NCBI GenBank assembly: GCA_964247135.1 | Contig: CAXTTL010000070.1 | Coordinates: forward strand, 1 to 20,369 | Direction: 5' to 3' | Origin: an uncultured Deinococcales bacterium | GTDB lineage: Bacteria; Deinococcota; Deinococci; Deinococcales; JAAFIG01 | Length of the DNA stretch: 20,369 bases | Shown here: piece by piece, positions 2,805-20,369 of the stretch | How positions within the stretch are numbered: position 1 is the stretch's first letter | How the letters are laid out: each line of letters starts with the position of its first letter | Notes under the pieces: model-generated | Database searches by the model: none | Told to the model about the DNA's origin: nothing | The model's input: the letters and a program-made list of their open reading frames with translations, nothing else | Program-made: the position numbers and the translations under genes

Positions 2805-3803
2805 ATGAAAAAAATCTTGAACGATCCGAATCATTTTGTGAACGAAATGCTCGAGGGAATGTACAAAGCACATCCCGAAATGGTCTCGAGCGTCGGAACT
2901 GACTTGCGTTGTCTGGTGCGCAGCGATGCGCCGGTCATGAACAAAGTGGCGATTGCCACGGGTGGCGGCTCGGGTCATTTGCCCGTGTTTTTAGGTTACG
3001 TCGGACCAGGAATGCTGAGCGGTTGCGCGATAGGTGACGTCTTTCAGTCGCCCAGCAGCGATCAGATGCTCGAGGTGACAAGGCGTATTCACGGCGGCAA
3101 AGGTGTGCTTTACGTCTACGGCAATTACGGCGGCGATGTCATGAATTTTGACATGGCAACTGAAATGGCGAGCCTGGAAGACATTGAAGTGCGCACGGTG
3201 CTGGTCAAGGAAGACGTTGCCAGCGCCAGCGCTGACCGTGCCAACACGCGACGCGGCGTGGCGGGCATGGTCTTTGCCTTCAAAATTGCGGGCGCGAAAG
3301 CCGATTTGGGCGCCTCGCTCGAGGAGGTCGAAGCATCAACCGTCAAGGCGCTCGCCAACATGCGAACGATGGGTGTGGCGCTCAGTCCGTGCATTCTGCC
3401 AGCCGTGGGCAGACCAACCTTTACCGTTCCCGACGGCGAGATGGAACTGGGCATGGGGATTCACGGCGAACCTGGCGTGCGTCGCGGCAAACTCGAGACT
3501 GCCGACCAGATTGCCGACACGATTCTCGAGACCATCACCGCCGACATGCCACTGGCGTCTGGCGATACGGTTTCGGTCATGGTCAACGGACTCGGCGCGA
3601 CGCCGCCCGAAGAGCTGTATATTCTCTACCGACGCGTGCACAACAACCTCGAGCAACAGGGCGTCAAAGTCCATAAAGCCTTCGTCGGCGAGTACGCCAC
3701 CAGCCTCGAGATGGCGGGTGCCAGCATCACGATTTTAAAACTAGATGCCGAATTGCAAACGCTGCTCGACCATCCCGCCCACACGCCGATGTTCAGGGTT
3801 TAA
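2805..3803 (+). CDS. dhaK: Dihydroxyacetone kinase family, substrate-binding subunit DhaK (Dak1), 332 aa
   Basis: MKKILNDP start (ATG 2805 after AGGGGG); GGGSGH, NYGGDVMNF, RRGVAG and catalytic GIHGEPG motifs. Confidence 0.93.
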   Translation: MKKILNDPNHFVNEMLEGMYKAHPEMVSSVGTDLRCLVRSDAPVMNKVAIATGGGSGHLPVFLGYVGPGMLSGCAIGDVFQSPSSDQMLEVTRRIHGGKGVLYVYGNYGGDVMNFDMATEMASLEDIEVRTVLVKEDVASASADRANTRRGVAGMVFAFKIAGAKADLGASLEEVEASTVKALANMRTMGVALSPCILPAVGRPTFTVPDGEMELGMGIHGEPGVRRGKLETADQIADTILETITADMPLASGDTVSVMVNGLGATPPEELYILYRRVHNNLEQQGVKVHKAFVGEYATSLEMAGASITILKLDAELQTLLDHPAHTPMFRV

Positions 3804-9341: not shown

Positions 9342-9501
9342 TTTAAATTTCCTCCTGAATTCAATCCTCGAGAAATACGTTCTTGCCCCATCCTAGTCTC
9401 AGATGACCCCCTCGAGTAGTGGTGCAAGTCTCTAACGCCGTTCTGAGAGGTATTGAACTCCCAAGAGTTGAGCAAATCCTGAATTCAGGCTTTTGAACTG
9501 C

Positions 9502-9537
9502 AAAACAAAAACCACTCGAGAATGGGTTTCTCGAGTG
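9502..9537 (-). terminator. Probable terminator whose stem is built from two CTCGAG copies
   Basis: CACTCGAGAA (9513-9522) / TTCTCGAGTG (9528-9537), then GTTTTTGTTTT on the minus strand. Confidence 0.7.
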
Positions 9538-9608
9538 ACATGAATTCAAGTTGCGTAATTGTTAGCAGTCAACTCTTGTTTGAGAAAGTCAGAGGCAAGC
9601 AACTGAAA

Positions 9609-10082
9609 TTAGATTTTGAAGCGAGCAAAAATGTAAACGAAGTTCTTAAAACCAAATATTGTCTCGGTCGGCAAGAATCCAACCCCTACCCCTGGCGATT
9701 CTTCTGCGCCAATGGTTAGTGTTGGTGAGAGAATAAATTCTGCCCCAAGTACCAGATGCACATCGATCAGAAGTCCAGAAGCCGTGCCTTTTGACAAGAA
9801 TTGCGCCCCTGCACCCGCGCCGTAATAAACCGTGAACATTGGAATAATTTCATAAGGTGCAAAACGCCCGACAACCAAATCGGCGCTGACCCCAGCCGAG
9901 AAAACGCCAGAGGTGAATGGGGCAATGCCAATGGCAAACTTTAGTCCTGTGCCTTCGCCTGGGCTGTAGGTCGTGTATTCCACACCAATATTTGGGAATC
10001 CGAGCCGTACACCAAACGATTGAGCGTTTGCCGAAGTTGCAAACCCAAGAAAAACGATAAACGCGATCAGAAATTTTTTCAT
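9609..10082 (-). CDS. Small exported protein, probable outer-membrane beta-barrel, 157 aa
   Basis: ATG 10082 after GGAG; signal peptide ending SANA; Gly/aromatic alternating strands (FGVRLG, VYYGAGAG, LGAEF); C-terminal YIFARFKI resembling a beta-signal. Confidence 0.7.
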   Translation of the reverse strand: MKKFLIAFIVFLGFATSANAQSFGVRLGFPNIGVEYTTYSPGEGTGLKFAIGIAPFTSGVFSAGVSADLVVGRFAPYEIIPMFTVYYGAGAGAQFLSKGTASGLLIDVHLVLGAEFILSPTLTIGAEESPGVGVGFLPTETIFGFKNFVYIFARFKI

Positions 10083-10167
10083 ATAAAACTCCAATACACT
10101 GCCAGTAAAATCTGGCGTGAGGGATAATAGGTAGCTCGAGATTCTCGAAGTACAGAGTTTGAGCTTG

Positions 10168-11946
10168 TTATTGTAGAATCCATTTCATATCGGAAGTAGG
10201 GACTTCAGTAGACGCAGAAATTAAATTATTTGACGTATATGTTATTATAACCCAATTCCAGCCTATTTTTAAATGTTGATTTTGAGAAATTAATGTACTA
10301 CCTGTATTACATGTTCCAGTAATATCAACATTAGAATCTGAATAATTTAAAATAGCTACTTTTCCACCAATTACAGGAGGATAGGAAGTAGCAAGTAATA
10401 TTGAATGCGTATTACTTTTTAAACTAACTTGAAGACTGTAACTAGTTGTTTTATAGTTATTACTTATAACCAATGAACCTGATGAACATCCTATAGGAGT
10501 ACCACTGCTAGCAGGTATTGATATTAAATCAGACACTTTTGGAGCAGATATTAAGGCTTTAAAATTACCTAGACTATCAATTTCACTACTTCCTAATATA
10601 GAGAGGTTGATCCTAAATTCTACCTTATCTAATGGTAACGAACTATTCCAATTTGAAATTTGCCCAGAAATTGTCGTTCCAGAGGAATCAAATCCGCTAA
10701 ATGACCTAACAGAAGATGTGACATCATTGCCTGGATAAGCATTTCCAGCCAAATCTGTAACACCCGTACCAACAAGAACAGTATATGGTGTCCCCGCAGT
10801 TTGAGTGCTTGTTGTTAAAGTTACGGTTTTTCCATCGCTGGATAGAACAGCAGCCGTGACTGCCAAAGTTGATCCTGCAATACTAAATTGAGCAGCAGTA
10901 ATGGTTGCTGGCGCTAATGCCTTATCAAATAAAACATCTACCGAAGTGCTGCTTGTCGCATTTGTACCCAGAACTTTGGGAGGATTTGAAGTGGATTGCG
11001 CTGGGTTAATTGTGATGACTTTTGTCCCTGAAACACTTCCAACCGTTGCTCTAATCAACACACTGATGCTCGAGCTTCCCGAAGCTGGGGGCGTATAGTT
11101 CACGGTTGAGGTTGTACTCGCACTTAACGTACCAATACCAGTTGTATTACCAGGCTCGAGACTCCATTGAATCGCAGGTTGCGGACTGATAAAAACTCCA
11201 TTGGCATCTAGCACAATGGCTCCTATCGTTGCAGGCGGTGCTCCAAATGAAAGTGCTGTTGGACCTGTAACTGAAATACTTGAAACCACAGGCGCTGAGA
11301 TTGTTGAGATTGACATAATCCACTTTAGATCAGAAGTTGGTACTTCTGAAGTAATATTAGATCCGGTTGTTGTTCTTGTTGTAACACTCCAATTCCAGCC
11401 AATTCTAAATTGCACATTGTAATTAGATGTAAAACTTACCCCTGATTGCGAATTTGTGCAAGAACCAGTAATATCTGTATTCGTATCGGAATATATTAGT
11501 GTTGCAGATTTTTCTCCTACGGCATCAAAATTTTTAGAAGTGGCTAGGATTACTGAGCCAGGTATTAAATTATTGCTATTTCGAGGTATTTGAGCACCAT
11601 TTATGAAAGTAAATTTAGGATTATTACTGATATTTATTGCCCCAGAAGTACATGAAATAGTTGGTAGTGGTTGCAAATCTGCGGCGGTTGGTGTTGACAG
11701 AGCAACTGTGAAATTTCCTTGACCATCAATACTTCCACTTCCAACAATATTATTTCCTATAGAATTTGAAGAACCTGGCAATGGGGTAGTTCTAAACTCA
11801 ATTTTACCTAGTGTTGCTGGCGGGTTATTCCAATTCGAGATTTGCCCAGAAACACTGGTGAGTGTCGGTGGGTCCGGTTGGGTTGGACATGCCACCAACA
11901 AAACCGTCAAAACAATACCGCCAAAAATCCCTTGCTTCCAATTCAT
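10168..11946 (-). CDS. Ser/Thr-rich lipoprotein: two copies of an unknown ~170-180 aa domain flanking Ig-like domains, 592 aa
   Basis: Lipobox LVA-C at Cys20; central Ig-like segment (PPKV...VDVLFDKAL...GKTVTLTT...YTV...VTDLAGN, SbsA/Big_5-like); repeat motifs SGQISNW, YSD-N-DITG-C, IGWNW and EVPTSD-KWI each occur twice. Confidence 0.85.
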   Translation of the reverse strand: MNWKQGIFGGIVLTVLLVACPTQPDPPTLTSVSGQISNWNNPPATLGKIEFRTTPLPGSSNSIGNNIVGSGSIDGQGNFTVALSTPTAADLQPLPTISCTSGAINISNNPKFTFINGAQIPRNSNNLIPGSVILATSKNFDAVGEKSATLIYSDTNTDITGSCTNSQSGVSFTSNYNVQFRIGWNWSVTTRTTTGSNITSEVPTSDLKWIMSISTISAPVVSSISVTGPTALSFGAPPATIGAIVLDANGVFISPQPAIQWSLEPGNTTGIGTLSASTTSTVNYTPPASGSSSISVLIRATVGSVSGTKVITINPAQSTSNPPKVLGTNATSSTSVDVLFDKALAPATITAAQFSIAGSTLAVTAAVLSSDGKTVTLTTSTQTAGTPYTVLVGTGVTDLAGNAYPGNDVTSSVRSFSGFDSSGTTISGQISNWNSSLPLDKVEFRINLSILGSSEIDSLGNFKALISAPKVSDLISIPASSGTPIGCSSGSLVISNNYKTTSYSLQVSLKSNTHSILLATSYPPVIGGKVAILNYSDSNVDITGTCNTGSTLISQNQHLKIGWNWVIITYTSNNLISASTEVPTSDMKWILQ

Positions 11947-12015
11947 ACTTCCCCCTTATGGCTCGAGGTTCGTTGGTTTTTGATCCTCCTCGAGCTTTGT
12001 AAAATGAGTATTTCA

Positions 12016-12050
12016 TTCGGGCGTCCGAAAACGTCCGAGTCAAAATGAAG
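12016..12050. promoter_or_regulatory. Candidate regulator-binding region between the divergent lipoprotein and TPR-regulator genes
   Basis: Near-perfect palindrome TTCGGGCGTCCGAA (12016-12029); direct repeat CGTCCGA at 12022 and 12032; AACGTCC...AAAATGAAG also found reverse-complemented at 14130-14153. Confidence 0.5.
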
Positions 12051-12087
12051 ACGAATTTTGTATGCAATTAAAAATATCTCGAGTGTT

Positions 12088-12115
12088 TTGCTGCTCGAGG
12101 ATTTCCCGATATACT
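12088..12115 (+). promoter_or_regulatory. Leaderless promoter of the TPR regulator
   Basis: TATACT (12110-12115) 7 nt upstream of ATG 12123; TTGCTG 16 nt further upstream; no SD. Confidence 0.6.
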
Positions 12116-12122
12116 TTAAGAA

Positions 12123-13787
12123 ATGCGGGTCACAAAATCATTTGCATCGTTTCACGATATGTTCAGTGAATTACTTGAACAGAAGTCATTCCAGCAAGCA
12201 CGGGTTTTGCTGGGTCATTTTCTTCCTAAACTTGAATCCAATCTGGAGTACGAACGAACGATTGGGTTACTGAAAAACATTCCGTTGGTTGTTTTCCAAC
12301 ACGATTTTGTTTTCGCTAAATACTATGCGGAAGTCTTGTGTGGTGCTGCAAAACTCGAGGAGTTAAATCAATTTATCGAGACAACACGTTTGACATTCTC
12401 AATAGCGCAAACCGCGCTTTTACAACTCGAGTTCGCAATTGGTTTGCAGGGAGTTTATAAGCACGAAGAGGCGATGCAACTTTTAGAACAAATCAAACCG
12501 AATCTTAAAAACGAACCCTTGGGTATTGCGTTGTGTCATTTGGGTTGGTCATTGTTTGAGAAACAAAAACGTTGGGAAACCGCGTTTCAATCTGCACTAC
12601 CATTGTTGCATGGTCTGGAGTTGGCTCGGGCGTTAATCAATTTTGGTCATTGTCTGTCGCAATCTGGACAGCATCAAAAAGCCCGTAACGCTTGGCTCGA
12701 AGCGCTTCCACTTGTAAAACATCGGGCAAAAACCCGAGCCTATATTCTTTATAATCTTGCCATCGTTTCGCAACGTCAAATGCTGCCCGATTCCGAAGCC
12801 TATTTTCTTGAGTTAGAACGTGTCTCACGCAATCCGAAAGCGTTAGATCGTCGGGCTTCGGCTCTAAACGGTATTGCAATGCAACGCAGAATTCGGGGTG
12901 AATTCCCTCGAGCACAGGCAGCGTATCAAGAAGCATTGCGCTGTGCAATTACTAACATTGATTTGCTCGCGGCTTACATTGGTTTGGCTCGAGTGTATGA
13001 ATTCGCAGGGAAAGCTGCTAAAAGTTTAGCCATTCTCGAGGAAGCACTGCTCAAACCTGAATTGCCAAAAGATCAACTGGGGGTTTGCAAAGCAAGCGCT
13101 TTACTTGCTTTGGGTGATGTGCAGGGTACTTGGGAAATGCTTGAAATTGTTGGAGACGTTAAACTTGACAATGTTCGCTGGGTTGTGGCGTTTTGCAAAG
13201 CAGAACTAGCACGGCGTTTTGGACGAGAGGCGGATGCAATAGCTTATTTACAAGATTTACCAATTCACAACCTTCATGCGCGAGAAGAAGCGGGTCGTTA
13301 TCCTGAACTGGTTCGACTTTTAGCAAAGTATCATTTGCCTACACCTCAGCCGCTTGAGTATTTTTCAGGAATTACGGTGCGCGTCGAAGCAACAAATTTA
13401 CTACGAGTTTACGTCAACCAGAGGCTTTTGGACATTGCCCCAACGGGCAAAATAGCTACTATGCTTGTGTATTTGCTCGAACATGGCAAAAGCTCAAGCA
13501 CTTCAGCCTTAAGAGATATTATGTACCCAAACCATGATCCAAATGATGCTCGAAAAAGGCTTTGGGATACGGCGAAAGCCTTACAGAAAATATTGGGTTG
13601 GAAAGAATCAGTGCAAAACCCTCGAGGAGCTTACCTTTTAGATCCAAACATTATTTGGAAGTACGATATTTCAGAAGCTCGAGCACGAAAGAAGTTTGAA
13701 GGCGAGTTTTTGCAGGGGATAGACGAGCCGTGGGTAGATGATATTCGCCATGAGTTGGTGAATTTAAGTGACAAAAACGAAAAATAG
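12123..13787 (+). CDS. Cytoplasmic TPR-array protein with C-terminal SARP/OmpR-like winged-helix DNA-binding region, 554 aa (putative peptide receptor/transcription factor)
   Basis: MalT/Rap-like TPR units (ARALINFGHCL...GQHQKA, ASALNGIA...GEFPRA...YQEAL); C-terminal LRVYVN...MLVYLLEH...LRDIMYP...LQKILG...GAYLLDP...FLQGIDEPWV; no signal peptide. Confidence 0.8.
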   Translation: MRVTKSFASFHDMFSELLEQKSFQQARVLLGHFLPKLESNLEYERTIGLLKNIPLVVFQHDFVFAKYYAEVLCGAAKLEELNQFIETTRLTFSIAQTALLQLEFAIGLQGVYKHEEAMQLLEQIKPNLKNEPLGIALCHLGWSLFEKQKRWETAFQSALPLLHGLELARALINFGHCLSQSGQHQKARNAWLEALPLVKHRAKTRAYILYNLAIVSQRQMLPDSEAYFLELERVSRNPKALDRRASALNGIAMQRRIRGEFPRAQAAYQEALRCAITNIDLLAAYIGLARVYEFAGKAAKSLAILEEALLKPELPKDQLGVCKASALLALGDVQGTWEMLEIVGDVKLDNVRWVVAFCKAELARRFGREADAIAYLQDLPIHNLHAREEAGRYPELVRLLAKYHLPTPQPLEYFSGITVRVEATNLLRVYVNQRLLDIAPTGKIATMLVYLLEHGKSSSTSALRDIMYPNHDPNDARKRLWDTAKALQKILGWKESVQNPRGAYLLDPNIIWKYDISEARARKKFEGEFLQGIDEPWVDDIRHELVNLSDKNEK

Positions 13788-13801
13788 AATGAAGGTAATC
13801 A

Positions 13802-13831
13802 ATGCCACCTGCAAACTTTCACAGGTGGCAT
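13802..13831. terminator. Stem-loop between the convergent regulator and peptide genes
   Basis: Perfect 10-bp stem ATGCCACCTG/CAGGTGGCAT with 10-nt loop; no strong U-tract. Confidence 0.6.
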
Positions 13832-13838
13832 CGGGGCT

Positions 13839-14000
13839 TTAGCGCCTGCATTTGACGCATGGCAGAGTTGGGTCTGCGTAAGCAGTGGATGTTGTTAAAC
13901 CCAATCCGCTTAGAATGACCACGATGGTAACGCAAATTTTAAACTTGCTAAAAATATTTGCGTTTTGTATCGCCGTCCCGACTTGAATGTAGTTTTTCAT
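13839..14000 (-). CDS. 53-aa secreted pre-peptide; predicted mature 11-mer DPTLPCVKCRR
   Basis: ATG 14000 after AAGGAAG; basic n-region KFK, hydrophobic h-region ICVTIVVILSGLGL, A-Y-A signal peptidase I site, then only 11 residues with CxxC. Confidence 0.7.
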   Translation of the reverse strand: MKNYIQVGTAIQNANIFSKFKICVTIVVILSGLGLTTSTAYADPTLPCVKCRR

Positions 14001-14065
14001 CGTCGCTTCCTTTTGAACAAAACTGCGCGAAGTTGGCTGCGCCCTTGGTAGTTTTGTTTCCACGG

Positions 14066-14209
14066 ATGCTAGGATCAGTGTCTAAATTTGATCTGACGGT
14101 TTTTGTTGCCTGGTCTAAAATGGCGAGTGCTTCATTTTTGCGTCTTGGACGTTATATTGACTGATCTCTCGAGATAAACAAATTCGACTCTAAAATCTGA
14201 TCTAAAATC
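14066..14209 (-). promoter_or_regulatory. Peptide-gene promoter with phased direct repeats (SARP-box geometry)
   Basis: -10 TAGCAT at 14066-14071; TTTAGAC (14080-14086) exactly 8 nt upstream; degenerate GTCAGAT at +11 and perfect TTTAGAC at +33 (14113-14119); additional GATTTTAGA pair at 14189-14197 and 14201-14209. Confidence 0.55.
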
Positions 14210-14312
14210 AGGGATTGTTTCGCGGCAGAGTTGAGGTACGAGCACATCATTCTGTGAGTGTCAGATGGATTATTTTCTACAGGTGACACACCCAATTCAA
14301 ATTGCTTTGAGG

Positions 14313-14342
14313 TTGATTCAAAGCCGAAGCTTTTGTTACAAT
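14313..14342 (+). promoter_or_regulatory. Promoter of the AT-rich SARP/AAA gene
   Basis: TTGATT-18-TACAAT with extended TGn; GGGGA RBS before TTG 14361. Confidence 0.5.
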
Positions 14343-14360
14343 GAGTGCCAGGGGATACTT

Positions 14361-16312
14361 TTGATTAAGCTCAATTTTTTTGGTTTGCCGTCAGCAATGG
14401 TAGATGATAAGAGTGTCAAACTCTTGGACAGCAGAGCGTATGTGCTACTGGCGTATCTAGTATTAAGTGAAAGCCCTATGCTTGAACGAAGAAAGCTTGC
14501 TTTTTTATTGTGGGAGGATTACGAAGTTTCAGATGGTTTAAAAAGTCTATCAAATTTAATATATAAAATCATAAAAGTGTTAGGTAAAGATGTTTTAAAA
14601 ACAAACCTTAAAGAAATTGGAATTGGTGAAATTTATTGTGAATCTGTTGAGTATGAAAAATTTGATTTTGAAACTCAATTTGAAATGTTAAAAAATGGAT
14701 TTTTACGATCTATTAACTTAGAAGATTATATGGAAATTAAAACAAAAAATAGTAAAAATATTGCTGAGATAGTAAACTTTATTACTGAAAAAAATGATAA
14801 TTTTAAATATGAAGCATCTAAAATAGCTGAAAGATTAATTATAAATTGTATTAAGCAAAAAGAATTTGAAAAATCTATTACTTACTTAGAATTCTTAATA
14901 TTTAATGATTTTAACACAGAGTTTAATCCTGTTAAAATATATTTTTTAACTCTTGGAATAATAAATAAAAGTAAAATGATTGAGACTTCAAAATTTAATT
15001 ATCAAACTTATCTGAAAAAATTAAATGATAAGGTGAAAATAGATGGTGAAATTGTTAAAACAATTGAACTAGCCGAATCTAAAAATCCATTAAATTGTCA
15101 AAAAGAGTTAGAAAAAATTATATCAATAGAACCAAGTAAAAATGAAATTCGATTTTTCAGACGTCAAAAATATTGGGATCAACTGACTGATGCTTTTCAA
15201 CAAGGGAAAACAGTTGGTATCTACGGTGATAATGGTGTCGGAAAAACGAGAATGGTTCGAGAGTTTATTAAAACTCAGGGTAAAATTTTGGAGTTTTCAG
15301 GACAAATTATAGATCAAAATATAGATTATGTATGCCTTGTTAGAACTTATGAGCATATTCTAAAAATTAAAAATTTAAAATTTCCTGAAGATATTTTAAA
15401 GCAATGGAGTAGATTTATTCCGAGTCTTGTTAAAAAACCACTTGGAGTATTAAAAGCAGGTGAAAAACAAGCTTTTTTTGATGCGGTATATCGAACATAT
15501 TTAATATACCTAGCTAGTCTTAAAAAAAATGATTTTGAATATATGTTTTGGAATAATGTTCATCTTTGTGATTTAAAATCTGTGGAAGCTGGTATTTATA
15601 TGGAATCGAGGTGTTTAATGGAAGGATTAGATGCGCCTTCATCAATATTTGCTTATGAAACAACTAGAATAAAAGAAAAAACGCACTTAAGTTTTACCGA
15701 TTGGAAAAAACTAAAAGACGGCTTTGTTTTAATTAAAATTGAAAACTTATCTGAAGATGAAATACAACAACTTTTATTAGAAAATAATTTAGATTTAGGT
15801 CTATCTAAAATTTTATTTGAAAATACTAATGGAAAGATGTCTTTGATCTGTAGAATACTAGGTAATTTTCTTAAGAATGATAAAAATATTGAATTTTTAT
15901 CTAAAATCACCCCAGAATTAGAAGATTATTTTAATGATCAAATACTATCAGCTAAAAACTCATATGTACTGGCTCAATATGCTGCTGTAATGGAGGAAAT
16001 ATTAAAAAAATATAATTTGATAGATTATTTTGGTGAAATAATTGGCAAATTATGCAATATTAATAATGAATTTAAGAAAAAAGAAATAGAATTAAATAAT
16101 AACTATATTTTTAGTACTTTAAAACGTAAGAAAAAAACATTTTTGAAAATCAACTAATATTTGAATATATTTTAAGTAAAATTTCAGATAGAGAAAAATT
16201 TGATTTACTGAATGAAATTCTAAAAATTTTAAAGAAAAATAAGAGTATTTCTAAAATTATTTTAGAAAAATATACTGAAGAAATCAAAAAGTATAAATTT
16301 GGGCGCTTTTAA
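14361..16312 (+). pseudogene. AT-rich SARP (AfsR/DnrI-like) regulator with AAA/P-loop domain, frameshifted near the 3' end (first frame stops at 16157, second at 16312)
   Basis: N-terminus IKLNFFGLP...LLAYLVL...RRKLAFLLW aligns by eye with the SARP at 20004; Walker A GDNGVGKT; degenerate Walker B region NNVHLCDLKS; homologous-looking continuation FENQLIFEYILSKISDREK in the -1 frame after A7/T5 runs. Confidence 0.7.
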
Positions 16313-16544
16313 AGGCGAAAATGATGATTTTATAGGTACAATTTAGTTAATCTCGAAATAGTTCTTTTGGTTTCAGGTTGTATGAGATAACTGCCAAACG
16401 TACTCGCATTAAAAACCGCTCGAGAAACATTGTTCTCTCGAGCAGTAAAAATTCACGAATTTACAATTTGATATTCCTCATAGCCCTTCACCAAATCAAA
16501 CTCGAGTCGAGTTCTCAGGCGACCACGGATTTCAGGTTGCACAC

Positions 16545-16651: not shown

Positions 16652-16912
16652 ATGACATGGTTAGAGATTCGAGATCAATACCCCAACACCTGGCTGTTAC
16701 TCGAGGCAATTACTGCCCATTCCGAGAATAACCAGCGAATTTTGGAGGAACTCTCGGTCATCTCGAGATTCGATGATTCTGAAAGCGCTCTTGATGCGTA
16801 TTCAGCACTTCATGAAATTGCCCCCGCTCGAGAATTGCTGGTGTTGCACACCAGTCAAGAAAAACTCGAAATCAAAGAACGATTCTGGATGGGAATTCGG
16901 ATGGCGGCGTGA
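16652..16912 (+). CDS. Small acidic hypothetical protein (DUF5678-like partner of retropepsin genes), 86 aa
   Basis: MTWLEIRDQYPNTWLLLEA N-terminus; leaderless promoter; GTGA overlap with the protease gene. Confidence 0.75.
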   Translation: MTWLEIRDQYPNTWLLLEAITAHSENNQRILEELSVISRFDDSESALDAYSALHEIAPARELLVLHTSQEKLEIKERFWMGIRMAA

Positions 16913-17298
16913 ACATTCGGTTATGGCACGGCTTGCCGTTTGTTCAAGTCAGGCTTGAGCACAATAGGATAAGCAAGGTTCTAGAAACAGTTTTGCTTGA
17001 CACGGGTTCTGCTGGAACACTTTTCAACACATTACGATTGCGTGATATGGGTATTGGTTTTGCACCAGGCGACCCAGTTCATAAAATTCGAGGCGTCGGT
17101 GGCTCAGAATTTGTATTCAGCAAAAAACTCGAACGCATCAGTGTTTTGTCGCTCGAGCTTCAAAATTTTGATGTCGAGGTCAGTCCCATGAAATACGGAA
17201 TAGACATGGACGGAATTTTAGGACTTGATTTTTTAATGCAAACCCGAGCGATTATTGATTTGGATGCGTTGAACTTGCGAAGCTCAACAAATTCTTAA
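16909..17298 (+). CDS. Retropepsin-like (clan AA) aspartic protease, 129 aa
   Basis: LLDTGS catalytic motif, IRGVGG flap and DGILGLDFL motif; no signal peptide. Confidence 0.88.
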   Translation: MNIRLWHGLPFVQVRLEHNRISKVLETVLLDTGSAGTLFNTLRLRDMGIGFAPGDPVHKIRGVGGSEFVFSKKLERISVLSLELQNFDVEVSPMKYGIDMDGILGLDFLMQTRAIIDLDALNLRSSTNS

Positions 17299-17390: not shown

Positions 17391-18056
17391 ATGAGCTTAC
17401 AAAACAGAATGTTTGAATTGCGCACACCCGAAGATGTGGACAGTTTCGTCACGCAGTACCCAACCGCCGCGATTTTTAAAGCCGGAACTTGCCACAAAAC
17501 CATGCAAGGTTGGGGCAACATCGAAAAGCTCTTGCGCGAGCGCGAAGACGTGCCAGTCGGTATCATTCGCGTGGTCGAAGCCCGACCAGCCAGCAATTAC
17601 GTCGAAGCCCGCACGGGCATCACCCACCAAAGCCCGCAACTGATTTTGTTCCGCGAGGGTGAAGCCAAATTTGACCTCGACAATTGGAACATCACGCCCG
17701 AAAACCTCGAGCCACGGTTTGAAGCTTACCTGCCAGCTTTAGAGGGCGAAAACGTGGCGAAAACGGGTGCGAAAACCAACCTCGAGCCTTACAAGAAATT
17801 GCTCGATGGGTACATTGCGGGGCAAGTTTCGGAACCACAATTTCAATGGACGTACTTGGAAATGTTCCGCGCCGACGCCAGTTTACGCAGCCAAGAAGAG
17901 TTCGATGTCTTGAACAGTTTGTTTGGCAACCCAGACGAGCATCACATTCACCCTGGGGCGATCATGAATCTCGAGGCGCAAATGCAAGACCAGCAAGCGA
18001 TAGCGCCGCTTCTCGAGCGTGCGCAGGAATTGCGGACGGTTTTGAACGCACTCTGA
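17391..18056 (+). CDS. abxC: Monothiol bacilliredoxin BrxC/YtxJ family, Deinococcus AbxC type with C-terminal helical extension, 221 aa
   Basis: FKAGTCHKT active site, R-x-x-SN and HQSPQLILF motifs; about 100-aa C-terminal extension; GGAGG RBS at 17381-17385. Confidence 0.85.
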   Translation: MSLQNRMFELRTPEDVDSFVTQYPTAAIFKAGTCHKTMQGWGNIEKLLREREDVPVGIIRVVEARPASNYVEARTGITHQSPQLILFREGEAKFDLDNWNITPENLEPRFEAYLPALEGENVAKTGAKTNLEPYKKLLDGYIAGQVSEPQFQWTYLEMFRADASLRSQEEFDVLNSLFGNPDEHHIHPGAIMNLEAQMQDQQAIAPLLERAQELRTVLNAL

Positions 18057-18212: not shown

Positions 18213-19922
18213 TTACAAATTTCGTTTCTCGAGCACTTCCAAAAGCTGTTCGTAACTGACGGCATATTTTCGGGCAACATCGGATGCGTAACTAATTCCC
18301 TTAGACGCAGAACGCACAATGCGATACGTGCGCTTGTGCTCTTTGCCGTCGTCTTCGGTGACCGACACCAAACTCGCCAAGTTGCTCGAGCCTGGATGTT
18401 GGTTGACGCTGTCCACATCGGCAAGTTCGTGCATGTGCGTGGCAAAAATGGCGCGGACGCCCAAATACCTAAAGGCTCGCAAAATATCCCTCGCCAGGTA
18501 CACGCCCTCACCTGGGCTGGTGCTCGAGAGGGATTCGTTTAACAGGATCAGGCTGTGCTGACTGGCTTTGTGAAACAGTGCGTTTAACCGTCCTGCCTCT
18601 TCACCGAGCCGACCGGTGACGGATTCGGATTTTTCTTCGACTGGAAAGTGCGTGTAAATGCTGTCAATTGGGCTGATGCTGGCACTTTTGGCGGGAACAT
18701 GCGCCCCCATTTGGCACAGCACATGCGCCAAACCGACGGCTTGAATGAAGGTGGTTTTGCCGCCAGAGTTTGGTCCGGTCAGAATAAAAATTTTTCCGGT
18801 GTCGTCAAAATCGACATTGTTGCCCACAATCTTGTTGCCCAAATCTCGCTCGCCGTTTTTTTCAAAACGCAGTGCCAGCAAAACATTGGTTAAACCCTCA
18901 AAATGATCCTCTCGAGCCTCAGGGTTTGTCAAATCGGGCTTGCACATCGCCACGCCCAAAGCTTGCAAGCGTTTGACCAGCGTCGCCGCGCCCAGGTAAA
19001 ACGCGAACTCTGCCTCGAGGTGCAAAAGTGGGTGCGAAAAAACTTGAATGTACTGCTTTAAGACTTGCGCCACAGGACGGGTGGTGTCCTCGAGCATTTT
19101 CTCGAGGTCGGCAAAGAAGGTTGCCAGCATTCGGTCTTTGCCCGAGGCGCTGATCGCCACCTTGCCCGAACCAAAGCCGGATTCCATCGTGCTGCCACTG
19201 ATCGCGCCCATGATCGCCGCGCCGATGCCGCGTTTGGCGTCTCGAGATTGCAGGCTGGTCATGCCAATAAATTCTGGTTTTTTCTGCATTAAAAACGAGG
19301 TGACCGAATGGGTCTTGCCGACGAACCTCTCGGAATTGATCGACAGCAATGTGGCTTCTGAGGGTCTTAATTGCGCGTCGAGGTTGATCCCAACCGTCAG
19401 GCTGGTCAGGTTGCTGACCGAGCGCCGCAACTCGGGCAATTTTTGTTTCATGTCTTCAAACGATTGTTCTTGCGTGATCTCGAGCACCAATCGTTGCAAT
19501 TCTTGCAATGCGCCAGATTCAATTTTTGCGCTTTCCAGCACGCTCGAGAGTCGGTTGAGCACATCCACGTACAACTCGAGTTCCGAAAGTCGGGTCATTA
19601 AGAGTTGCAACTGACTTAAATCGCCCTCCCTGGAATTGAGTTCTTTGAGTTCGTGCAACAAGGGCAGCACGTCTTTGATGCCTTCAAACAGCAAACTCGA
19701 GCGCATAAAATCGGCAAAGACTTCTTGACGGTACGCGATTGTGGACACGTTGCCGCTGAAATGCGAAATGATTCGTTCGACATGGGGCTTGAAACGTGGT
19801 TCGATGCAGAGTGCCGCCACCAGTTCCACCAGTGCCAGGTCATGAATGCTTTCGCTCCCCAGTTCGATGGAGACGGGCGTGTCCGTGTTTTGCCACAGAC
19901 AACTGAAATGCTCGAGGTTCAT
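18213..19922 (-). CDS. MutS-related protein (MutS domain V ATPase, lacking the mismatch-binding domain), 569 aa
   Basis: LTGPNSGGKTT, G-x-x-VPA, IYTHF, GRLGEE, LILLNES and FATH motifs; start set at ATG 19922 by leaderless -10. Confidence 0.88.
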   Translation of the reverse strand: MNLEHFSCLWQNTDTPVSIELGSESIHDLALVELVAALCIEPRFKPHVERIISHFSGNVSTIAYRQEVFADFMRSSLLFEGIKDVLPLLHELKELNSREGDLSQLQLLMTRLSELELYVDVLNRLSSVLESAKIESGALQELQRLVLEITQEQSFEDMKQKLPELRRSVSNLTSLTVGINLDAQLRPSEATLLSINSERFVGKTHSVTSFLMQKKPEFIGMTSLQSRDAKRGIGAAIMGAISGSTMESGFGSGKVAISASGKDRMLATFFADLEKMLEDTTRPVAQVLKQYIQVFSHPLLHLEAEFAFYLGAATLVKRLQALGVAMCKPDLTNPEAREDHFEGLTNVLLALRFEKNGERDLGNKIVGNNVDFDDTGKIFILTGPNSGGKTTFIQAVGLAHVLCQMGAHVPAKSASISPIDSIYTHFPVEEKSESVTGRLGEEAGRLNALFHKASQHSLILLNESLSSTSPGEGVYLARDILRAFRYLGVRAIFATHMHELADVDSVNQHPGSSNLASLVSVTEDDGKEHKRTYRIVRSASKGISYASDVARKYAVSYEQLLEVLEKRNL

Positions 19923-19929
19923 TGAAAGA

Positions 19930-19938
19930 AGTTTAGCA
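19930..19938 (-). promoter_or_regulatory. Extended -10 (TGC-TAAACT) of a leaderless promoter
   Basis: 7 nt upstream of ATG 19922; no SD. Confidence 0.6.
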
Positions 19939-20003
19939 CTCGAGATTGCCACCCGAGCCTCCCCCAAGTTTGGGCGTAACATGTACGTTCAAGGAGGCTG
20001 AGG

Positions 20004-20369
20004 TTGCTCGAGGTCACGCTGCTGGGCAAACCGAGCTTGCAAATGGATGGGTTGGCGTTGGTTCTGCCGACCCGCAAGTCGCTGGCTTTGCTGGCGTACC
20101 TGGCGCTCGAGGGGGCAACATCACGCTCAAAGCTGGCGGATTTATTTTGGGGCGAACTTGCCGAGGATGATGCCCGCAAGAACTTGCGTCAAGAATTGCA
20201 TCGGCTTTCCAAAACCCCGCTTGGGGTGCTGCTCGAGCAACGCCCCGAGACGATTGCGCTGGGTGGCTTTAGCTTGGATGTGCAGCGGTTTCGGACGTTT
20301 CTGACCGAAGGCGATTTCGAGGCGGCGCTCGCGTTGTACCAGGGTCCGTTGCTCGAGGGCTTGGAGTTG
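20004..20369 (+). CDS. SARP/AfsR-family transcriptional regulator, 5' part (runs off the window)
   Basis: AAGGAGG at 19991-19997, TTG 20004; MLEVTLLGKP...RKSLALLAYLALEG...SRSKLADLFW...ARKNLRQELHRL...LDVQRF...ALALYQGPLLEG; missing from the ORF track because it has no stop codon. Confidence 0.9.
   Translation, partial: MLEVTLLGKPSLQMDGLALVLPTRKSLALLAYLALEGATSRSKLADLFWGELAEDDARKNLRQELHRLSKTPLGVLLEQRPETIALGGFSLDVQRFRTFLTEGDFEAALALYQGPLLEGLEL

Follow-up and report, generated by a model that had tools for sequence, protein, structure and literature searches.

Do a regulator built of tetratricopeptide repeats (TPRs) and a tiny open reading frame (ORF) that converges on it form a peptide-signalling pair? 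The question is raised by a 20,369-nt contig of an uncultured Deinococcales bacterium (CAXTTL010000070.1, assembly GCA_964247135.1; the whole stretch is called the window below), in which the gene for a 554-aa TPR protein, here called the receptor, faces a 53-codon micro-ORF whose product resembles the precursor of a short secreted peptide. A preliminary description, made from the letters of the window, had taken the two genes for a signalling cassette analogous to the RRNPPA systems. This idea survived comparison with the relatives of the receptor as far as the pairing of the genes, the co-variation of the peptide tails and the domain order of the receptor are concerned, whereas the layout, the genomic context and the prior cataloguing had to be corrected. 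On balance, we favour the interpretation that the two genes are a cognate pair of RRNPPA-like design, in which an exported pro-peptide would be sensed through its C-terminal end by a cytoplasmic regulator.

Pairing of the receptor gene with an upstream micro-ORF

Using a hidden Markov model of the family, we located 84 receptors in fetched 18-kb and 15-kb flanks; these loci (numbered with the prefix L) were picked from the top of the hit lists and not at random. A small ORF on the same strand lies immediately upstream of the receptor gene in 13 of the first 14 loci, the fourteenth being truncated by the end of its contig, and 20 of the 21 receptors in the 18-kb loci have such an upstream micro-ORF. 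An automated rule was applied to all receptors and, as a control, to 555 other genes of at least 250 aa from the same loci. It required an ORF on the same strand that stops between -500 and +1300 nt relative to the gene start and that has a hydrophobic 10-mer, then 8-48 more residues, and a terminal Cys or Gly motif. The rule was satisfied for 68 of the 84 receptors versus 26 of the 555 control genes. One of the 68 is a false match inside the window's own receptor, and reading by eye adds L023, L026, L068, L079 and L080, which brings the number of receptors with a micro-ORF to 72 of 84. The preliminary description had made its case depend on a secreted-type micro-ORF beside the homologues of the receptor, and such an ORF accompanies most of them, across the phylum.

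In the usual layout of the family the peptide gene comes first and the receptor gene follows on the same strand; tandem peptide genes occur in L010 and L015/L028. The convergent layout, which had been described as the arrangement of the system, is therefore an exception: the window receptor has no peptide upstream, and its micro-ORF lies downstream. In L019, which lies at a contig end, no upstream peptide is visible, and neither the rule nor reading by eye found one at L046, L063, L076, L092, L095, L104, L105, L107 or L108. At L075 a family-type peptide ending in AHAEGDPPKITSGG is encoded directly upstream of the WYL gene (3154-3345), 3.6 kb from its receptor, and this locus is another rearranged cassette. 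As a side observation, L107 and L108 (genus g9), without an upstream micro-ORF by the rules used, hold the weakest family members (E 1e-40 to 1e-44) and belong to small genomes of 2.2 Mb.

The window's own genome encodes four full-length paralogues of the receptor family. Scanning this 5.09-Mb genome in six frames with a strict motif gave six matches, four of which lie beside the three other receptor paralogues. Two further micro-ORFs (G000, C35:18934-19179 and C311:1916-2167) combine a signal-like N-terminus with the end GGGASGGGGLPGG; they lie away from any receptor paralogue and may belong to a different family.

Classes of peptide tails and their conservation

The family peptides are 40-65 aa long and begin with a basic N-terminus, a hydrophobic stretch of 12-20 residues and a variable spacer, after which come a small or hydrophobic residue with an acidic pair (A-D-D, A-G-D-D or V-D-D), usually P or K, and then the end. 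Three types of end were distinguished, a G-rich one (..K.G.GG), CC.GG and P-C-x-x-C, the last of which is that of the window peptide. A profile of 11 members of this PC..C class matches 52 database proteins 51-89 aa in length, 48 of which have E <= 2e-9; those with a source name are all called hypothetical, apart from two names that are evidently misapplied. All 28 relatives inspected have a P/L-C...C end, mostly following (L/F)VDDPK, and these matches indicate that the PC..C class is real.

In a maximum-likelihood tree of 80 receptors, the window receptor falls into a clade of seven rows (SH-aLRT support 98), the other members of which, where the upstream region is readable, all have PC..C tails. 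The CC, ADGDDPKIGTGG, QGDDPKGGGGLG and GDDTKGGTP.G tails map to receptor clades of their own, with the CC type occupying two. Peptide tails thus track receptor clades, which is the co-variation that the preliminary description had proposed to look for.

The conservation of the peptides is concentrated at their ends. In 22 nearest-neighbour pairs of receptors, identity over the last 12 peptide residues amounts to 218 of 264 positions, compared with 315 of 721 at positions 13-45 from the peptide end. Codon differences were 72 synonymous and 46 non-synonymous in the tail, and 87 and 410, respectively, in the rest, where the figures are inflated by indels because the comparison was ungapped. The identity of the tails and the pattern of codon differences lead to the conclusion that the micro-ORFs are translated and that the extreme C-terminus is under selection at the protein level. 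Such a constraint would be expected if the mature product consisted of the C-terminal 9-12 residues.

Structure and distribution of the receptor

Pfam recognizes only TPR families in the 554-aa protein (best TPR_12, E 2.7e-11). An AlphaFold2 (AF2) model built on 44 relatives, with a predicted local distance difference test (pLDDT) score of 94.7 and a predicted template modelling (pTM) score of 0.90, consists of a helical TPR solenoid (residues 7-402), a beta-beta-alpha-beta-alpha-alpha-hairpin unit (418-514) and two final helices. The C-terminal domain is overlooked by Pfam, which finds Trans_reg_C in one of the 44 family members and BTAD likewise in one of 44. In hhalign, however, this domain aligns with the N-termini of BTAD-STAND (BTAD-AAA-TPR) proteins encoded nearby over 112 columns (probability 95.4%, E 1.7e-8). 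When it was modelled alone (pLDDT 94.6) and submitted to Foldseek, the top match was AfsR (8hvr_I, E 2.6e-6, TMq 0.65), followed by EmbR (2ff4) and the DNA-binding domains of OmpR/PhoB proteins; the E values for AfsR, with 8k60 also among the best, and for EmbR span 2.6e-6 to 9e-4. The receptor is a TPR solenoid with a C-terminal winged helix of the SARP type, and its N-terminus has no hydrophobic segment. The domain order and the output domain had been deduced correctly in the preliminary description, including the inversion of the order known from RRNPPA receptors. Foldseek and a PDB profile search with the whole receptor returned generic TPR proteins and nothing more specific.

The organism is placed in Deinococcota, as had been supposed, and the family is widespread in this phylum. 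Receptor matches at E <= 0.001 were found in 25 of 41 related genomes, and the family profile at E <= 1e-15 matched in 107 of 251 sampled Deinococcota genomes. By family code the matches were uneven (f1, 5/5; f3, 63/103; f5, 35/61; f4, 0/12; f2, 3/69). Named records with the receptor include metagenome-assembled genomes of Deinococcales, Deinococcus plasmids and Calidithermus roseus. Among the 1.84 billion representatives of a library, 418 proteins reach E <= 1e-30; of the best 150, nearly all are 500-600 aa long and match end to end. Scans of metagenome contigs with alignment A1 and with protein P0002 confirmed no locus.

Location of the family in CRISPR-Cas loci

In most loci, the receptor gene is followed, usually on the same strand and within about 200 nt, by a gene for a WYL/WCX-domain protein and then by Cas3, after which come either Cas5d-Csd1-Cas7-Cas4 (type I-C) or Cse1 and the rest of a type I-E system. 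By a blast-cluster criterion, such genes lie within 8 kb downstream of 56 of the 84 receptors; with L021, where Cmr2-Cmr3 (type III-B) stand directly downstream of the receptor, the total is 57 of 84. On the other side of the cassette, in both loci checked (L029 and L025), the peptide gene comes shortly after the end of a CRISPR array. The upstream alignments of L056, L057, L065, L067, L070 and L071 open with a 37-nt repeat unit that all six share and that is presumably the final repeat of the CRISPR array; a conserved inverted repeat (TGCGCGAACCCC...GGGGTTCGCGCA) comes next, and after it the peptide gene. The 37-nt unit also occurs in L051 and L055. As a separate observation, L051, L052, L054, L055 and L058 have in common the palindrome CGCGCA-N7-TGCGCG about 60 nt ahead of the peptide start; it is conserved between variable flanks and is a candidate operator.

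Two plasmids of cultured strains in RefSeq have this gene order as well. On plasmid P5 of Deinococcus gobiensis I-0, the TPR protein DGO_RS20530 is accompanied by WYL and by casA to cas2e, with cas3 divergent, and pMESIL01 of Allomeiothermus silvanus DSM 9946 carries MESIL_RS17030, Cas3, cas5c and cas8c. Neither gene table has an annotated gene in the space of the micro-ORF; the PLSDB tables are incomplete, so the ORF may nonetheless have been annotated. The system, first seen as a lone curiosity of its island, is a branch of a family that lives mostly in CRISPR-Cas loci. None of the seven members of the window's own clade lies next to cas genes.

The receptor family had been catalogued before. 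The PADLOC-DB profile PDLC01171 ('TPR') matches residues 23-546 of the receptor on its positions 6-502 of 504 (E 5.4e-90), and PDLC01092 ('C3a198, TPR protein') matches the window receptor from end to end (E 4e-59). In the accessible part of Shah et al. 2018 (PMC6546367), C3a198 is a three-member cluster with Mrub_1490 as its example, associated with subtype III-B and given no description beyond 'TPR protein'; this is a catalogue name without a function, and that part mentions neither a winged helix nor a partner micro-ORF. The full-length profile matches identify the receptor as a member of this catalogued, unexplained CRISPR accessory family. Unlike 57 of its 84 relatives, however, the window copy has no cas gene among the ORFs of its 20-kb contig.

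The accessible parts of a preprint on CRISPR-linked genes (10.1101/270033), of the 2025 CRISPR classification update and of the terascale-clustering paper contain other TPR proteins and no receptor of the C3a198 type. In full-text literature we found nothing on the peptide partner, on a winged helix in the receptor or on peptide signalling in Deinococcota, a search that did not cover supplementary tables of accessory genes, which may list the gene. The preliminary description had called the system a candidate new one; the receptor family is already catalogued as a CRISPR accessory, and no paper on the peptide partner was found. As far as we searched, the micro-ORF, the output domain and the signalling interpretation are new.

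The genomic context also bears on a different explanation, in which the peptide is an exported end product (bacteriocin-like, metal-binding or modified) and the TPR-SARP protein does no more than switch on its gene. In actinomycetes SARPs act in this way on pathway genes, and the output domain of the receptor is of the SARP type; the tails are rich in Cys or Gly, as in many exported small peptides; and cassettes outside CRISPR loci lie beside secreted proteases and surface proteins. It would, however, be surprising if an export product without a part in sensing were encoded, in 57 of 84 loci, between a CRISPR array and cas3. In addition, genes for a modification enzyme, a dedicated exporter or immunity are not conserved beside the pair, and the tail type tracks the receptor clade, which simple promoter activation does not require. 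We consider this explanation unlikely.

The cassette in the window

The features of the window are collected in Table 1. Read by eye, the product of the micro-ORF has the lysines K19 and K21 in front of its hydrophobic core and small residues at A40-Y-A42, and its n-region of 21 residues is atypically long. The conserved D-D-P-K-P-C-x-x-C block of alignment A4 begins at the position of the predicted mature peptide. These elements, the ribosome-binding site and the stem between the two stop codons agree with the preliminary description, in which a convergent ORF with its own ribosome-binding site across a hairpin, a KFK motif, the core and AYA had been noted. The hairpin was not flagged by a terminator scan, there being no T-run after it; it is likely a bidirectional terminator.

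Table 1. Features of the window, with the positions of the first and last nucleotides and the basis of each assignment
Feature	Position	Strand	Basis
Divergent neighbour gene, 592 aa, lipoprotein-like, with Big_5 Ig domain	10168..11946	-	Pfam Big_5, E 1.6e-9
Receptor/regulator gene, 554 aa	12123..13787	+	ORF call, TPR Pfam matches, AF2 model, end-to-end PADLOC profile matches
C-terminal DNA-binding domain of the receptor, SARP/OmpR-type winged helix (residues 405-554)	13335..13787	+	hhalign, Foldseek
Hairpin with 10-bp stem between the two convergent stop codons	13802..13831	.	RNA fold, -20.7 kcal/mol, z -3.05
Micro-ORF, 53 aa + stop: N-region, hydrophobic core 22-35, A-Y-A 40-42, tail DPTLPCVKCRR	13839..14000 (coding part 13842-14000, stop codon 13839-13841)	-	ORF call
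Predicted mature peptide of 11 aa, DPTLPCVKCRR, on the assumption of signal peptidase cleavage after A42	13842..13874	-	A-x-A site; alignment
Ribosome-binding site AAGGAAG, 5 nt before the ATG of the micro-ORF	14006..14012	-	Read from minus strand
Pair of exact TCTAAAATC copies 12 nt apart, between the micro-ORF and the gene at 14265	14189..14209	+	Sequence repeat
Neighbour gene, 630 aa, winged helix + AAA_16, STAND-like regulator	14265..16157	+	Pfam AAA_16; 26% GC; no CTCGAG
129-aa protein matching the PADLOC candidate defence protein PDC-M08B	16909-17298		E 2.8e-41
Second BTAD-STAND gene, N-terminus, runs off the contig	20004..20369	+	tblastn, E 1e-18 to 1e-20

A lone ORF of 53 codons is not beyond chance expectation, and the significance of the micro-ORF comes from the family comparison. 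Its tail resembles that of the second peptide of L010, which ends in AFADDPKPCPACRR and is encoded directly upstream of a receptor homologue. The shared base composition ties the micro-ORF to the receptor gene, as its GC content (43.4%) is close to that of the receptor (44.0%), compared with 26.3% in the next gene, which starts at 14265. The possibility that the micro-ORF is part of this divergent gene was rejected, since the GC contents differ and, in L021, no such ORF stands beside the homologous gene. A 241-nt contig from a public run is identical to 13654-13894 and spans the ends of both genes; it may stem from the same sample. Two public DNA runs yielded short contigs only, and no RNA run was among those listed as containing the sequence. 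No inverted repeats that would convincingly explain an inversion of the receptor or the peptide gene were found, a 16-nt pair at 11900/14088 being at chance level in 2.4 kb. Prediction of a complex between the receptor and residues 24-53 of the micro-ORF product gave scores of 0.02, 0.56 and 0.18 which, without controls, speak neither for nor against binding.

Several observations weigh against a cognate signalling pair. At 12 of the 84 receptors, that of the window included, no upstream peptide was seen. Co-variation of adjacent genes is expected from co-inheritance alone, and since neighbouring genes are inherited together it is, taken by itself, weak evidence. The closest receptors are 48-52% identical to that of the window, and an orthologue of the exact pair was not among the retrieved sequences; the sole close look-alike of the CRR-ended peptide is one L010 ORF, found with tblastn at E 0.027 in a 5-Mb search. 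The sensor part gives only generic TPR matches in Foldseek. Two further points, the nature of the hydrophobic segment in the PC..C class and the layout of the window, each lead to an alternative of their own.

In most PC..C peptides the hydrophobic segment comprises about 20 residues, has no clear or canonical A-x-A after it and is separated by some 20 more residues from the conserved block; basic residues flank it on both sides. Judged from its sequence, such a segment would suit a membrane anchor as well as a cleaved signal. The product could then be a single-pass micro-protein that, like a membrane anti-regulator, joins the TPR regulator in sensing a cue from the envelope or from outside the cell, and there would be no diffusible signal. 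Yet selection acts on the extreme C-terminus, whereas it is the N-terminus that a cytoplasmic receptor would meet. The window peptide and the second L010 peptide, moreover, make up a shorter sub-type with A-x-A directly before the conserved block and two arginines after it, and in most peptides of the GG class an A precedes the D/G-D motif. A membrane-anchored partner is, in our opinion, quite improbable.

As the convergent downstream layout is unique among the 84 receptors examined, the micro-ORF of the window could be a displaced relic. The receptor would then be an orphan next to a non-functional remnant, and the rest of the family may still signal. The rearranged low-GC island, the foreign insertion next door and the unusually long N-terminal extension of the micro-ORF are in keeping with such an origin. 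However, the ORF is intact, with a ribosome-binding site, the hydrophobic core, A-x-A and the PC..C motif of its clade; its GC content matches that of the receptor; and a terminator-like hairpin stands exactly between both stops. We give little credence to a remnant and retain the view that the micro-ORF is the partner of the receptor.

Neighbourhood of the cassette

The pair lies in a low-GC island (9500-16500, 25-44%) within a contig of about 52% GC. CTCGAG, a hyper-abundant palindrome of this genome, occurs 108 times in the window (about once per 190 bp), compared with 2.85 expected from shuffles; there is none in 14174-16418 and there are only two in 10141-11961, which makes these two stretches probable recent imports. 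Pairs of CTCGAG upstream of the receptor gene were considered as SARP boxes and rejected, the 108 copies in the window making the motif a genome-wide feature.

The cassettes outside CRISPR loci (those of the window clade and its f1 neighbours) are found near BTAD-AAA-TPR regulators of the STAND type in seven loci including the window, and also near S8 subtilases and Big_5, DUF11, RCC1 and Tectonin proteins. The gene at 14265 is probably a recent insertion and not part of the receptor-peptide pair, because of its 26% GC and the lack of CTCGAG sites; its product clusters with the BTAD-AAA-TPR proteins near cassettes in six other loci. The STAND gene at 20004 is native-looking and 48% identical to the STANDs of L018 and L026, which accompany cassettes of the same clade. 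A Big_5 protein is encoded just upstream of the peptide gene in L018 as well, and the divergent Big_5 gene of the window is a possible target. The TCTAAAATC copies lie 56-76 nt upstream of the start at 14265, with a near-copy at 14114, and this pair is a candidate operator on sequence grounds.

Large secreted S8 subtilases, some with PKD, Ig or RCC1 domains, stand beside non-CRISPR cassettes in L028 (764-7143), L034 (10298-12004) and L037 (4746-6419); the S8 subtilases are candidate processing enzymes of the pro-peptide or candidate targets. Judging by its matches, the island of the window has a defence flavour too. Besides the PDC-M08B match, other genes of this flavour are a fusion of BrxC bacilliredoxin with a colicin-immunity-like part (17391-18056) and an ATPase with MutS domain V and weak LmuB/AriA P-loop matches (18213-19982).

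Proposed mechanism and significance

In the mechanism that we favour, the 53-aa precursor would be inserted into the membrane or exported by means of its N-terminal hydrophobic segment, and a cut after A-Y-A would free an 11-mer with a D-P start and a C-x-x-C motif that is possibly oxidised outside the cell. The peptide would build up extracellularly, re-enter the cell and bind the TPR solenoid of the 554-aa protein, and binding would alter the engagement of promoter DNA by the C-terminal SARP-type winged helix. In the window, the regulation is likely aimed at the surface-protein and defence-island genes nearby, and in most relatives it would be aimed at the cas operon immediately downstream.

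A broader proposal, which we put forward tentatively, concerns the role of the family in CRISPR-Cas loci. A host-encoded peptide module of Deinococcota (a secreted peptide of 9-12 residues with a TPR/winged-helix receptor), placed between the CRISPR array and WYL-cas3-Cascade or Cmr, may let the signal of neighbouring cells raise or prime CRISPR-Cas. The PC..C cassette of the window would be an offshoot re-used for surface-protein and defence-island genes, and may use a disulfide-closed peptide. If the proposal is true, the signal could report cell density, or be an alarm from cells whose operon is already induced. The sensing of peptide signals by TPR receptors in the cytoplasm is, to our knowledge, considered a speciality of Bacillota and their phages; if a family without homology to theirs worked by the same logic in Deinococcota, the design would have arisen more than once, including in bacteria with an outer membrane. 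We also know of only global regulators of cas genes so far; the family, which usually sits between the array and cas3 (of type I-C or I-E, with one III-B locus), would provide a dedicated input encoded in the locus itself.

The proposal offers a functional hypothesis for a catalogued, unexplained CRISPR accessory gene and flags a class of genes of 40-65 codons that is absent from the inspected gene tables of D. gobiensis P5 and A. silvanus pMESIL01. It is directly testable, as the candidate peptides are short enough for synthesis and the family has cultured carriers: Deinococcus gobiensis I-0, D. proteolyticus MRP, Allomeiothermus silvanus DSM 9946 and Calidithermus roseus NBRC 110900.

Comparison with known systems

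The RRNPPA systems (Rap-Phr, NprR-NprX, PlcR-PapR, PrgX, Rgg-SHP and AimR-AimP) serve peptide quorum sensing in Bacillota and their phages. The family described here shares with them a cytoplasmic TPR-type sensor adjoining a small ORF that has an export-signal-like N-terminus and a conserved, short, specificity-bearing C-terminus, as well as the co-variation of receptor clades with peptide tails and the occurrence of tandem peptide genes. It differs in that the TPRs start at residue 7 and the output domain is a C-terminal SARP/OmpR winged helix instead of an N-terminal XRE-type HTH or a phosphatase, and in that it belongs to the phylum Deinococcota, where most copies are embedded in CRISPR-Cas loci. 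No RRNPPA-specific family was among the 12 Pfam matches of the window receptor at E <= 1 and no RRNPPA structure was among the Foldseek matches listed, and the PDB profile search gave generic TPR proteins alone. We read the module as a convergent analogue of the RRNPPA systems and not as a member.

SARP regulators, which include AfsR, EmbR, DnrI and ActII-ORF4, share the type of winged helix and the first BTAD-like helices after it. Here, however, the domain is C-terminal, after about 400 aa of TPRs, there is no NB-ARC/AAA module, and a full BTAD is not detected (1 of 44 members), two helices alone following the wing.

A link between quorum sensing and CRISPR-Cas is known from Pseudomonas, and control by acyl-homoserine lactones was reportedly described in Serratia by Patterson et al. 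in 2016. If the CRISPR-embedded cassettes signal between cells, they would have in common with such control that cell-to-cell signalling is coupled to cas expression. The difference lies in the source of the input, which there comes from global LuxI/R regulators encoded elsewhere, whereas here a dedicated pair of genes is placed between the array and cas3.

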